A stretch of 64,000 nt of DNA. Origin: an uncultured Candidatus Saccharibacteria bacterium. GTDB taxonomy: Bacteria > Patescibacteriota > Minisyncoccia > Phycocordibacterales > UBA9973. The notes below the pieces were generated by a model. It ran no database searches. It saw only the letters and a program-made list of their open reading frames with translations, and had not been told where the DNA came from. Position numbers and translations under genes: made by a program. The stretch lies in NCBI GenBank assembly GCA_964553015.1, contig CAZKJE010000002.1:14175-78174 (forward strand), read 5' to 3'. How positions within the stretch are numbered: the stretch's first letter is position 1; each line of letters starts with the position of its first letter. Of the stretch, positions 19,866 to 22,676 are shown one piece after another.

Positions 19866-22676
19866 ATGAACAAACTAAAATATTTTTTATTTGGCGCATT
19901 TTTTCTTTTAGCATTCGCTTTTTTATTTACTAATGTTAATCAAGTTTCCGCAGCTGGAAATTGTACGACAGATACTTGGAATCCTCCTAGTCTGGTTCCT
20001 TGGAAGACTACAGCCTCTACTCAAACATTTGACTTGACCCATACTTATAAGGATGGGTTTTTGCCTGGAGCCCCTTCTACAACTGAAACAGATTCTTGTA
20101 CAACAACAGCAAATCACGGCGCTACTTGCCAAGCGGGAGGTGTAACTGAATCATTACAAGGTCCACAGGATCCAGAATTTGGATATCCATGTAATCCAAG
20201 TGGATTAATAAACGTAACCAGTCCCATAAATAGAATAGATACACTTCTGCCAGTTTGCGGTACATGGAGTGGTTCGGGGCCGACATATACTCTCTCGGGT
20301 TCAACTGACCCGGCTGCAAGCGGGGGTAGTGGACAAAGTGGGATAAATGTTTCTGGTGGTTCTTGTACCGCTTCATCGGGGAGTTCTTGTACAGTAACTA
20401 TTTCAGATGTTGCGGGAAATCTAAAATCTTGTACCAGCCCGGTTTATGGTAATTATACAGTAGCCGCAGTTGCAAATAGTGGTGGCAGTGTTTCTCCAAT
20501 TTCTCAACCAAATGTAGCTTATGATTCTACGACAAATTTTACCGTTACCCCAAGTAATGGCTTTACTCATGCTGTTGGATCTCCAGGCTTTGGTCCTTCA
20601 GGGTGTGCTGATAATACAGGGACTTTTACTACTGGTACTAACTATCTTACTGGTAAGATTAAAAACAACTGCAACTACACTTTTAGTTTTACTCTTAGCG
20701 TTCCCGCTACTCCCACTGGTCTAACTGCCACACCTAGTTCTTGCGGAACAGGGAGAATAGATGTTTCGTGGAATGCATCCAGCGGCGCTACCAGCTACAC
20801 GCTTAAGGATGGAGCTGTTACTATTTATACCGGAGCTGCAACTTCTTTTGCTCACACTGGTCTAGTAGCGGGCTCGAGTCATAGTTACACCGTGAGTGCT
20901 ACAAATAGCGGCGGCACTTCTGCATACTCAAGCGCTGTTTCAGCGAGTGCGCCGATAGCGTGTGCTGCAGTTGTCAACGGCTCCTGTTCAGTAACCCACT
21001 ACGGTTGTACTGCAGGAACAAGCGCCAACAATGTAGACGGCGCTACTTCTTGGACTTGGGTTTGCAATGGTTCAAATGGCGGAACCAACGCATCCTGTTC
21101 TGAAGCGAAACCTTTACCCGATCTCACTGCTTCCTCTCCCACGCCAACGACAGCCACCACCGGCGTAGCGCAGACGTTCTCTTCAACTATCTCCAACATC
21201 GGCACCGCTTCAACTGGAGCTTCTTTCTCCAACTTCTTCCAGGTAGCCACAGCTGCCGGAGGAGGGGGAACTGTTACGGATCTTGCCTCTACTACAATGA
21301 CAACTCTGGCTGCCGGAGCCACTGGCACCAGCACCAAGGCCTACACCTTCCCATCTGCCGGCACATACTCTGTCCGAGCTTGCGCGGACAAGACTAACGC
21401 CGCTTCTACTGGAGTAATTACGGAATCAAATGAGGGTAACAATTGCAGTTCGTGGACAAATGTTTCAGTCACCAGCACCCCTGTCATGTCCGGCACCCTG
21501 ACTCCAAATCCTACTTCTTGTGTTATAGCTTCTGGTGCTTCAAGTTGTTCTGTCACTCTTAATTGGAGCATAGCAAATCCTGAAGGAATACCGACCGCTA
21601 TCACAGCCACAGGAATGACTAATGTGAATGTCACAAACACTCTGGCAACACCCCAATCCGGGAATCAATCTTTAACTGTTCCGTACAGTTCTAGAATATT
21701 TTATCTTTACAATAATGGAGTTCAGCTTGCTACCAGCAGTGCTACTGCCAGTTGTACAGGGGGGACTGCATGGAATGGAAGTATCTGCGCTCCCGCTATG
21801 TCCGGCACACTTACGTCTTCAGCTCCATCTTGCGTAATTGCTTCCGGAGCAAGCACTTGCATTGTAAATCTCACTTGGACTACGACAAATCCCGAAGCAA
21901 CTTCTGCGGTCACTTCTTCTTATCCTGCTCCTAACACTACTGTTTTCACTGGATTAAACGGCGGTCCTTCATCGGTTACCATTCCGTACAGTTCCAGAAC
22001 TTTCTATCTTTACAATAATGCAAAATCACTCGTGCCGACTTCTCCTAGCGGAGCCGGTATCGTCGTGACTGCAAGCTGTACAGGAGGAACAGCTTGGAAT
22101 GGAACAGTTTGCGCAAACGTTCCTCCCACGGTTAACGCCGGTCCCGATAAGGCCATAACTCTTCCTACTAGTTCTTCCGCTCCTACCGGCGCCTATGCTA
22201 CCGATGTCTCGCCTGGCACAATAAGCAGCAGATTGTGGACGAAAACTTCTGGCCCGAGTGCTACCATTACCAATGGGACGACGCTTACTCCTACGTTTTC
22301 TAATATGACAGCCGCCGGCACATACGTCTTCCGTCTCACTGCTACCGACAATCAGGGGGCTACAGGATTTGACGAAATGCAGGTTGTGGTTTCAGCTTCC
22401 GGCGGTGGAGAAGAATGCACTAATGGAGCAACGAATTATCCCGAGTGTACTATCGATGGCGGAGGATGCCTCAACGGCGCAACCAATCCGCCTCTTTGCA
22501 CCATCGGGGCAGGCACTAATGGCAACTGCGCAATCACGCCTAACACCTGTTCTTCTGGAACACCGACCGTTGGCGCATGGAATGCCTCTAACCATGTCTG
22601 GACTTGTACTGGAACGAACGGAGTGCCTGTATCATGTTCAGCCCCGAAGAGACAGCCGGACTTTATAGAAAATTAA
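19866..22676 (+). CDS. Large secreted multi-domain surface protein (FN3-like, CARDB-like, tandem Ig-like repeats, PKD-like, Cys-rich modules)
   Basis: 936 aa with a signal peptide. FN3-like segment (PTGLTATPSSCGTGRIDVSWNASSGATSYTL...YTVSATNSGG). CARDB-like segment (PDLTASSPTP...YSVRACAD). Two ~105-aa tandem repeats (21482..22120). PKD-like segment (PPTVNAGPDKAITL...FRLTATDNQGA). Two copies of a Cys-rich C..C..W.W.C.G.NG...C module. Confidence 0.8.
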   Translation: MNKLKYFLFGAFFLLAFAFLFTNVNQVSAAGNCTTDTWNPPSLVPWKTTASTQTFDLTHTYKDGFLPGAPSTTETDSCTTTANHGATCQAGGVTESLQGPQDPEFGYPCNPSGLINVTSPINRIDTLLPVCGTWSGSGPTYTLSGSTDPAASGGSGQSGINVSGGSCTASSGSSCTVTISDVAGNLKSCTSPVYGNYTVAAVANSGGSVSPISQPNVAYDSTTNFTVTPSNGFTHAVGSPGFGPSGCADNTGTFTTGTNYLTGKIKNNCNYTFSFTLSVPATPTGLTATPSSCGTGRIDVSWNASSGATSYTLKDGAVTIYTGAATSFAHTGLVAGSSHSYTVSATNSGGTSAYSSAVSASAPIACAAVVNGSCSVTHYGCTAGTSANNVDGATSWTWVCNGSNGGTNASCSEAKPLPDLTASSPTPTTATTGVAQTFSSTISNIGTASTGASFSNFFQVATAAGGGGTVTDLASTTMTTLAAGATGTSTKAYTFPSAGTYSVRACADKTNAASTGVITESNEGNNCSSWTNVSVTSTPVMSGTLTPNPTSCVIASGASSCSVTLNWSIANPEGIPTAITATGMTNVNVTNTLATPQSGNQSLTVPYSSRIFYLYNNGVQLATSSATASCTGGTAWNGSICAPAMSGTLTSSAPSCVIASGASTCIVNLTWTTTNPEATSAVTSSYPAPNTTVFTGLNGGPSSVTIPYSSRTFYLYNNAKSLVPTSPSGAGIVVTASCTGGTAWNGTVCANVPPTVNAGPDKAITLPTSSSAPTGAYATDVSPGTISSRLWTKTSGPSATITNGTTLTPTFSNMTAAGTYVFRLTATDNQGATGFDEMQVVVSASGGGEECTNGATNYPECTIDGGGCLNGATNPPLCTIGAGTNGNCAITPNTCSSGTPTVGAWNASNHVWTCTGTNGVPVSCSAPKRQPDFIEN

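Follow-up and report, generated by a model that had tools for sequence, protein, structure and literature searches.

A long gene lies directly upstream of a block of pilB, pilC and pilin genes in the window, the whole stretch of 64,000 nucleotides analysed here, and the locus raises the question whether its product belongs to the pilus or is a surface protein in its own right. The host is an ultra-small Patescibacteria bacterium. To our knowledge, the way in which Patescibacteria outside Saccharibacteria recognize and hold their hosts is largely unknown; type IV pili are the main suspects in their host attachment. The features of the locus are as follows.

19853..19858 (+): TATAAT, a -10-like box 7 nt 5' of the ATG, read from the sequence as a putative leaderless-type promoter
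19866..19952 (+): Sec-type signal peptide, aa 1-29, recognized by inspection and conserved in P0026
19953..20216 (+): module NtA, aa 30-117, divergent first copy of a four-Cys beta module of about 76 aa
20217..20450 (+): second copy of the four-Cys module of about 76 aa, aa 118-195, motif C-G-T-W-S ... I-S-D-V-A-G-N ... C-T-S-P
20451..20711 (+): InlB B-repeat-like module, aa 196-282
20712..20951 (+): FN3-like module, aa 283-362, from a sub-threshold fn3 match and a seeded HMM
20952..21113 (+): Cys-rich module 1, aa 363-416, motif NG-x-C-x6-C ... W-x-W-x-C ... GG-x4-C-S-E
21114..21485 (+): CARDB domain (Pfam PF07705), aa 417-540, a stretch of C-ending codons
21486..21797 (+): 105-aa unit 1, aa 541-644
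21798..22121 (+): 105-aa unit 2, aa 645-752
22122..22400 (+): K319L-like PKD domain (Pfam PF22352), aa 753-845
22401..22508 (+): two 2-Cys mini-repeats (C-x-NGATN-x-P-x-C-TI), aa 846-881
22509..22652 (+): Cys-rich module 2, aa 882-929
22653..22676 (+): conserved C-terminal tail ...KRQPDFIEN and stop codon
22695..22732 (+): terminator-like hairpin AAAAAAAUCCC...GGGAUUUUUUU, dG -21.1 kcal/mol, z = -6.5
22732..22750 (+): extended -10 TGtTATAAT, 7 nt, then the pilB ATG (true pilB start 22748), read from the sequence
22748..28439 (+): pilB, pilC, three minor-pilin-like genes and a 426-aa pilin-headed protein (T2SSE/MshEN, T2SSF)

The reading frame at 19866..22676 (+) starts with ATG and encodes a protein of 936 aa, exactly the coordinates and length called in an earlier sequence-only reading. 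The signal peptide claimed there is likewise present: by inspection, aa 1-29 comprise a basic n-region, a hydrophobic core and a VSA cleavage-type site (MNKLKYFLFGAFFLLAFAFLFTNVNQVSA, followed by AG), and the peptide is kept in orthologues, P0026 among them. There are 34 Cys in the protein, and each dedicated Cys-bearing module has four; 60% of the mature chain is T/S/G/A/N, and its composition is low in charge. Pfam searches found no catalytic domain. Neither a membrane anchor nor an LPXTG motif nor any known domain for cell-wall binding was found in the protein, and the same holds for SLH and other known S-layer anchoring domains; the C-terminal end (CSAPKRQPDFIEN and the stop codon) is without the hydrophobic stretch of a sortase substrate. 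The gene is real, and its product is a secreted, disulfide-rich chain of about eleven small interchangeable beta-sandwich and Cys modules.

The CARDB-like and PKD-like modules named in the earlier reading both exceed their Pfam gathering thresholds, CARDB with 40.4 bits at aa 418-528 (threshold 22.7) and K319L-like PKD with 59 bits at aa 758-842 (threshold 27), and the objection that domain searches would find no such folds fails. CARDB copies at 60-74% identity occur in many homologues, and the PDB relatives of the PKD domain by sequence are 6nz0_Z and 2yrl_A, PKD domains of KIAA0319L (E = 7e-9). The proposed FN3-like module stays below the Pfam threshold (PF00041, 14.8 bits on aa 282-359, cut-off 25), but an HMM built from aa 283-362 does retrieve fn3 arrays, in proteins for which PF00041 is the precomputed annotation. 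The InlB-like assignment is transitive: aa 196-282 gave no direct match to PF18998 (Flg_new_2) at E <= 5, but an HMM seeded on this segment picks up aa 174-243 of P0034, where Pfam calls PF18998 at 175-243, and the family is also present in P0121, which is 41% identical to the N-terminal region of the window protein. NtA aligns with the unit that P0083 repeats four times in tandem and with the N-termini of P0007, P0011, P0018, P0023 and P0026, and its AF2 model is all-beta. Confident all-beta models were obtained for the 105-aa unit and the N-terminal modules, with fold matches solely of Ig/FN3/PKD type. The N-terminal modules, 105-aa units, Cys modules and tail had no match in Pfam or NCBIfam, and the Cys-module profile found no relative in the PDB. 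Three module families, of 105 aa (the tandem unit), 48 aa (the Cys module) and 76 aa (the four-Cys module), are without a Pfam match. The pair of 2-Cys mini-repeats at aa 851-878 is missing from the earlier list of modules. Thrombospondin-type-1 matches of the homologues P0007 and P0004 map to another module, absent from the window protein.

Whole-protein self-BLAST displayed the diagonal alone, and segments were therefore compared pairwise. Two tandem repeats of about 105 aa had been described and are present, but the frame-true start is 21486, and the 21482 given earlier misses the frame by a few bases. Identity between the units is 50% (BLASTP, E = 1e-35); at the DNA level they share only patches of 39 to 50 nt at 80-90% identity, and TRF detected no DNA tandem repeat. 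Because each unit is nearer to units of other proteins (55-60%) than to its neighbour, the pair is not a recent duplication in situ; the two are read from these comparisons as old members of a module family. The Cys-rich modules at aa 368-416 and aa 882-929 align over 51 aa with 37% identity (pairwise E = 5e-12) and are detected by one HMM, which confirms both copies of the duplicated module. The Cys module is carried by 2590 representative proteins, one of which has as many as 45 matched stretches.

A change of codon style within the gene had also been reported, and it is real. Mainly, the first 263 codons are AT3-rich, with a GC3 of 0.21 against 0.42 in the remainder; of the central part only the CARDB stretch is C-ending as claimed (C3 0.35-0.42), and the repeats are not (0.20-0.23). 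The 5' part lies below the genome GC3 (about 0.40) and the rest of the gene at genome level, so the compositional outlier is the AT3-rich 5' part and not the central part. The change-point is the strongest among 18 genes tested; several other genes of the window display significant but weaker intragenic GC3 heterogeneity. The breaks fall near module boundaries, and amino-acid content does not explain the shift. The modular acquisition suggested from it is borne out as modular evolution by the module orders and copy numbers of homologues, but a recent recombination donor for the 5' part did not emerge: nine related slot genes gave no DNA similarity to it.

Homologues are named Paceibacterota, Nomurabacteria or Minisyncoccia. 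A module census of 120 homologues found the same modules in shuffled order and number across about 90 of them; because modules differ in both respects, modular evolution is directly supported. A homology search with the N-terminal 255 aa returned one weak match and failed to recover relatives already known, because of the limits of the word index. In comparisons with related blocks, 36-77% of the length of the slot protein aligns, at 39-50% identity, against 86-90% for NusA, 81-86% for PilB, 72-75% for PilC and 59-71% for the pilins; in a block that is otherwise conserved, the slot is the gene that varies most. The window of 64 kb holds no DGR template, and blastn of the gene gave only two intragenic patches.

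The gene would be flanked by transcription signals of its own. A (T/A)AGTATAAT box stands upstream of the gene start in four related loci, 6 nt 5' of the ATG in L002 and L007 and about 24-30 nt 5' of the called ATG in L004 and L005. The downstream hairpin recurs with the same layout and differing stem sequences in most related loci. The extended -10 of pilB is the best promoter match of the region, and 15 of 20 loci carry a -10-like box 6-9 nt before the pilB ATG. From its own putative promoter and terminator, the gene is most likely expressed independently of the pilus genes.

Since the gene sits in a fast-changing slot yet appears to be transcribed alone, we read its product as an adhesin-like surface protein rather than a demonstrated pilus part, and hold with moderate confidence that it is a Sec-exported, independently transcribed and rapidly diversifying protein of Candidatus Paceibacterota (Patescibacteria). 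The exported chain would begin with two four-Cys beta modules, followed by an InlB-B-repeat-like, an FN3-like and a Cys module; CARDB and a pair of Ig-like 105-aa units come next, and PKD, the two mini-Cys repeats and another Cys module lead up to the short conserved tail P-x-F/Y-x-E-x-COOH. The gene occupies a hypervariable slot between NusA and the pilB-pilC-pilin block, where related genomes have proteins of the same module set in other order, number and length, diversified probably by module shuffling and fast substitution. The putative role is adhesion or contact at the surface of an episymbiotic cell, with the beta-sandwich chain as stalk and binding surface and the tail as a candidate retention or sorting signal. 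The term adhesin is a reasonable inference from the domain make-up; enzymes and S-layer-like proteins contain domains of these types too, as passive spacers. A role in host adhesion has been proposed for Ig-like and PKD proteins that Paceibacterales express (PMC10936435). Multidomain adhesins with Ig-like repeats and surface proteins with CARDB/PKD (invasin/intimin, Lap/Bap-type, and CARDB-domain proteins, as NCBI names the homologues P0003, P0021 and P0044) resemble the window protein in that a signal peptide precedes a chain of FN3, PKD, CARDB and Ig-like beta-sandwiches; invasin, RbmA and a large adhesion protein are among the fold matches. Unlike them, the window protein has no LPXTG, T1SS signal, autotransporter or beta-barrel anchor, and it adds three Pfam-unmatched module families and a distinct C-terminal tail.

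An association with the pilus had been proposed from the gene's position, and the position is conserved in this lineage: of ten homologues whose loci were looked up, nine are placed between NusA and TIM/PGK, and eight of these directly 5' of pilB; in a census of 25 representatives of species whose PilB is 75% or more identical, 15 have an ORF of 312-2392 aa with the tail just 5' of pilB. The protein could then be a factor like PilY1/PilC, a non-pilin docking on a minor-pilin tip complex and presenting variable adhesive modules at the pilus tip. The downstream block does supply a minor-pilin set (weak NCBIfam matches, GspH-, PilV/GspI- and GspJ-like) together with a large pilin-headed protein, and the N-terminal module pair, kept in six of nine looked-up slot homologues as well as in the window protein, could serve docking. 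Like the PilY1/PilC tip adhesins of Pseudomonas, Neisseria and Myxococcus, for which a role in attachment is proposed, it is large, is not a pilin, has a Sec signal, combines conserved with variable parts and is encoded beside minor-pilin genes. Synteny points only weakly to the pilus, however, because the block also carries the unrelated housekeeping genes NusA, TIM, PGK and RecJ. The slot is empty in three of the 25 representatives (L021, L027, L028), where an intact pilB directly adjoins NusA, and is occupied by another ORF in seven; conversely, L006 has the protein while its pilus block is missing. P0021, P0027 and P0044 occupy the slot but lack the N-terminal modules. The window gene and pilB are separated by a conserved terminator and by a promoter of pilB's own, so that unlike PilY1/PilC the window gene appears to be its own transcription unit, dispensable in close relatives which keep pilB. 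Its C-terminus consists of Cys modules in place of the defining beta-propeller: Pfam, with only CARDB, PKD and fn3 families at E <= 1, gave neither a PilY1/Neisseria_PilC propeller nor a pilin N-terminus. On these grounds a pilus-tip factor is unlikely. In L006 the gene has stops and a frameshift, and decay of the protein upon pilus loss was considered; this is likely an error-prone assembly, because many neighbouring genes in the contig are fragmented too.

Modular pilins offer a second comparison on the pilus side. The bacteria that carry them are generally regarded as outer-membrane-less. Those of Streptococcus sanguinis (PilB/PilC, PMC8179133) and Saccharibacteria (PilX1/PilX2, PMC12206443) likewise link adhesive modules to a type IV pilus system, but they begin with a pilin N-terminus, whereas the window protein has a Sec signal and no N-methylation motif or hydrophobic alpha-1 helix. 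Its N-terminus (VSA, cleaved before A) is not a class III signal peptide (G, cleaved before F/M-x-x-x-E) with a following hydrophobic helix, and it gave no N_methyl match, unlike the neighbouring 139-aa pilin. The 426-aa pilin-headed protein at 27159-28439 fits that class better and, by analogy with Saccharibacteria PilX2 (PMC12206443), is the better candidate for a tip adhesin.

A structural envelope or coat protein, S-layer-like or cell-wall-associated, which would vary in order to escape phages or predators and not for adhesion, agrees with the low charge and T/S/G/A/N-rich composition, with the long chain of beta modules free of catalytic or recognizable ligand-binding domains, and with the extreme length and module turnover; the conserved tail could tie such a protein to the envelope. 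We consider this improbable, as a core coat protein is not expected to be absent from the slot in close relatives, though a paralogue may lie elsewhere, and as SLH and other known S-layer anchoring domains are lacking. A released, soluble polymer- or nutrient-binding protein is very improbable: the signal peptide is unaccompanied by a recognizable anchor, and CARDB, PKD and FN3 modules are frequent companions of secreted hydrolases, but the protein is without a catalytic or known carbohydrate-binding module and its conserved tail suggests a specific fate after export.

Reading the gene as an adhesin-like surface protein separates a fast-evolving surface protein from the adjoining pilus machinery and avoids its mislabelling as a pilus part; it also flags three uncatalogued extracellular module families. 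This is useful annotation which leaves the textbook view unchanged. In the literature no direct description was found of such a protein beside Patescibacteria pili, nor of the tail motif.

The tail itself may be of wider use, as a handle for finding the surface proteome of Paceibacteria. P-x-Phi-x-E-x-COOH ends 51 of 89 modular homologues, against an internal frequency of 0.0003 per position; no NCBIfam model matched it, and no candidate processing enzyme was identified. LPXTG/sortase, PEP-CTERM/exosortase and MYXO-CTERM signals resemble it as short, position-specific, lineage-wide C-terminal motifs on secreted multidomain proteins, with basic residues before it, but in the window protein no transmembrane helix follows the motif, and the chain ends at E-x-COOH directly before the terminator. 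We tentatively suggest, as a proposal more doubtful than probable, that [K/R]n-P-x-[F/Y]-x-E-x-COOH is a new C-terminal sorting or retention signal without a transmembrane segment and, at the same time, that the NusA-pilB slot is a cassette-like locus in which conserved ends frame exchanged module sets. In relatives the conserved ends would be the signal-peptide DNA on one side and the 3' tail and terminator on the other, and freely exchanged module sets could, if the proposal is true, set the host or surface specificity of episymbionts. Mosaic ends of this kind were found in relatives: signal-peptide DNA 95% identical with the remainder unrelated, and two tandem paralogues whose last 148 nt are 98.6% identical. 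A sister flavour of the tail, F/Y-x-Y-x-E-F-COOH, occurs on three tandem Zambryskibacteria proteins.

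The open reading frame at 19866..22676 (+) encodes a 936-aa protein, as claimed from the sequence alone, and an identical protein with the same neighbours is recorded from one public assembly. It occupies the place between NusA and the pilB-pilC-pilin block, here called the slot. The product is an exported, Cys-rich, all-beta modular protein, presumably disulfide-bonded; the mature form contains 34 Cys, four per dedicated Cys-bearing module, and consists to 60% of T, S, G, A and N. The proposed signal peptide is borne out by Sec features of the N-terminus (MNKLKYFLFGAFFLLAFAFLFTNVNQVSA followed by AG), which is kept in the orthologue P0026. 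The CARDB-like and PKD-like modules were recovered as Pfam CARDB (aa 418-528, 40.4 bits, cut-off 22.7) and K319L-like PKD (aa 758-842, 59 bits, cut-off 27); fn3 (aa 282-359) scored 14.8 bits, below its threshold of 25. NCBIfam added nothing to the Pfam results for this protein, and no catalytic domain was found in it by the domain searches. The N-terminal 168 aa comprise two divergent copies of a 76-aa four-Cys module, which the homologue P0083 carries as a 4x tandem repeat. A structure model of this part is all-beta with a disordered linker (mean pLDDT 83); fold comparison of the model gave no specific match. Residues 196-282 are a putative InlB-B-repeat-like module, linked transitively to Pfam Flg_new_2. 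The duplicated Cys-rich modules, with four Cys each, lie at aa 368-416 and 882-929 and share 37% identity. The tandem repeats of about 105 aa are also present, with 50% identity between them.

Codon-aligned repeat units
21486-21797 (+): unit 1, aa 541-644
21798-22121 (+): unit 2, aa 645-752

DNA similarity between the units is left only in short patches, and TRF detected no tandem array in the gene. Each unit is nearer to units of other proteins (55-60% identity) than to the adjacent one, so the two are old members of a module family that stand next to each other and did not arise by recent duplication.

For a module census, an HMM seeded on every segment of the protein was run over the 120 best homologues; those with a named source belong to Candidatus Paceibacterota, Nomurabacteria or Minisyncoccia. 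The same parts (CARDB, 105-aa unit, Cys module, InlB-B-repeat-like, FN3, PKD, mini-Cys repeats and 76-aa four-Cys module) recur in different order and number. This rearrangement, together with codon breaks that track module borders, gives good support to the modular evolution proposed earlier, and the product can be assigned to a module-shuffling family. No other gene product of the block has diverged nearly as much as the slot protein.

Identity of related proteins to their window orthologues
NusA: 86-90%
PilB: 81-86%
PilC: 72-75%
Pilins: 59-71%
Slot protein: 39-50%, over 36-77% of the length

Slot genes of relatives have mosaic ends. Locus L009 contains tandem slot paralogues (6001-11836; 1017 and 889 aa) whose last 148 nt are 98.6% identical, with the terminator duplicated; the 889-aa gene shares signal-peptide DNA (95% identical) and nothing else with the slot gene of locus L003.

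Observed GC3 along the gene ranges from 0.17 to 0.55, against a flat 0.41-0.47 expected from amino acids and window codon usage. One break falls after aa 545, at the CARDB/unit border (0.50 vs 0.31, 0/400 shuffles, with the sub-window picked post hoc), and another close to the unit/PKD border. Hence the codon shift is genuine: amino-acid content does not account for it, and it follows module borders. Of the composition described in the sequence-only reading, the AT-ending 5' part stands; the repeats, said to be C-ending, are T-ending. Deviation from the genome mean GC3 (~0.40) is confined to the AT3-rich 5' region, for which no DNA-level donor was found among the related slot genes compared. 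Orthologues in lower-GC relatives are uniform in composition. Several other window genes also show significant, weaker GC3 heterogeneity. Two ORFs, 37007-37564 and 55967-56344, have a very low GC of 0.28 each (window ~0.42).

Genomic context was examined for ten homologues in their own contigs. Nine share a block that runs NusA(-), 0-3 small unknown ORFs, the large modular protein, pilB pilC pilins, TIM PGK HIT RecJ. In six of the nine, pilB comes immediately after the modular protein, and in two another ORF intervenes; in the last (locus L006) the pilus block is missing and TIM directly follows. The L006 slot gene (5800-11321) is broken by stop codons and a frameshift, and since many adjoining genes are also fragmented, the assembly may be error-prone. 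The tenth homologue (Zambryskibacteria) is located elsewhere, adjoining two similar proteins and secDF. A PilB-seeded survey with one genome per species yielded 80 loci.

Surveyed loci whose sequence reaches 3.5 kb or more upstream of pilB
PilB identity at least 75% (n=25): tail-bearing ORF whose end is less than 400 nt from pilB, 15; NusA immediately against pilB, 3; another ORF, 7
PilB identity below 75% (n=37): tail-bearing ORF whose end is less than 400 nt from pilB, 4; NusA immediately against pilB, 3; another ORF or none, 30

Taken over both groups, the tail-bearing ORFs span 312-2392 aa. Location next to the pilus genes is conserved but optional. Variability extends to the stretch upstream of the slot: two genes at 18188-19707, between NusA and the slot gene, are absent from related loci. 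The first encodes an acetyltransferase (GC 0.35). The second, a 303-aa ORF (GC 0.51; GC3 0.55, the window maximum), contains an internal start that resembles a signal peptide (MRRNIIGCLVVLLVLAFSVNAQ); it matched nothing in Pfam or NCBIfam, and tblastn gave no homologue in related loci.

The tail in question, P-x-[aromatic/aliphatic]-x-E-x-COOH, ends 51 of 89 modular homologues, usually behind two or three basic residues; internally the pattern occurs at 0.0003 per position. The window protein ends in KRQPDFIEN (tail 22653-22673, aa 930-936), a homologue in KKKPIFIEN, and the consensus over the C-termini of homologues P0002-P0095 is [K/R]n-P-x-F/Y-x-E-[N/D/F/Q]-COOH; F/Y-x-Y-x-E-F is the ending of three neighbouring proteins from Zambryskibacteria. 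The motif is not followed by a transmembrane segment and matches none of the NCBIfam models. Only ~20 of 144 other Cys-module-bearing proteins have the tail, which is not generally tied to the Cys module. Speculatively, the tail might serve as a signal for sorting or retention.

The gene appears to have its own expression signals.

22695-22750 (+): A-tract/hairpin/U-tract terminator fused to TGnTATAAT
22748 (+): pilB ATG

A TATAAT box stands 7 nt ahead of the slot gene ATG. The hairpin 3' of its stop (AAAAAAAUCCC...GGGAUUUUUUU; dG -21.1 kcal/mol, z = -6.5) runs straight into TGtTATAAT, the best promoter match in the region, and after 7 nt, the same spacing, into the pilB ATG. Such a fused terminator and box also recur in the corresponding region of loci L002, L004, L005, L007, L009 and L012-L048. 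Among 20 loci with a tail-bearing protein, 13 have this terminator-plus-promoter layout, with differing stem sequences, and 15 a -10-like box 6-9 nt ahead of the pilB ATG. Such short distances suggest leaderless mRNAs in this lineage. From the terminator, the separate pilB promoter and its own -10 box, the slot gene most likely forms its own transcription unit. Two other pilB starts, TTG 22604 from a mechanical ORF list and the public call (~22634 by offset), overlap the 3' end of the slot gene; TTG 22604 was rejected, and orthologue lengths of 581-592 aa and the promoter position favour ATG 22748.

The earlier description was largely right on mosaic, repeats, Cys modules and codon shift; the functional link to the pilus, drawn from the position upstream of pilB, stays hypothetical. 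A PilY1-like, pilus-associated role is weakened by the absence of both propeller and pilin features from the 936-aa protein, the terminator between the gene and pilB, the empty slot of some close species and the lack of N-terminal modules in some slot proteins. The block also holds a better candidate, a 426-aa protein (27159-28439) that has a hydrophobic, pilin-like N-terminus and stands last among the pilin genes. Identity to orthologues (419 to 619 aa long) is 59-70% over its first ~177 aa and only 35-47% over the remainder; as a candidate PilX-like tip protein it is comparable to Saccharibacteria PilX2 (PMC12206443). The slot protein is of an ordinary kind, a modular, adhesin-like and presumably surface-located protein, from a phylum that has received little study. 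We infer a role in surface contact or adhesion, in agreement with a proposal made for Ig-like and PKD proteins that Paceibacterales express (PMC10936435).

The window contains a single tRNA, a tRNA-Ile (43989-44062) whose anticodon is TAT, an uncommon bacterial means of reading AUA.

The 48-aa four-Cys module has no relative in Pfam or PDB by sequence; at E <= 1e-3, 2590 representative proteins carry it. It builds very long arrays elsewhere (P0122, P0123 and other module-bearing hits): a protein of 3421 aa has 33 matched stretches, and one of 2655 aa has the maximum of 45.
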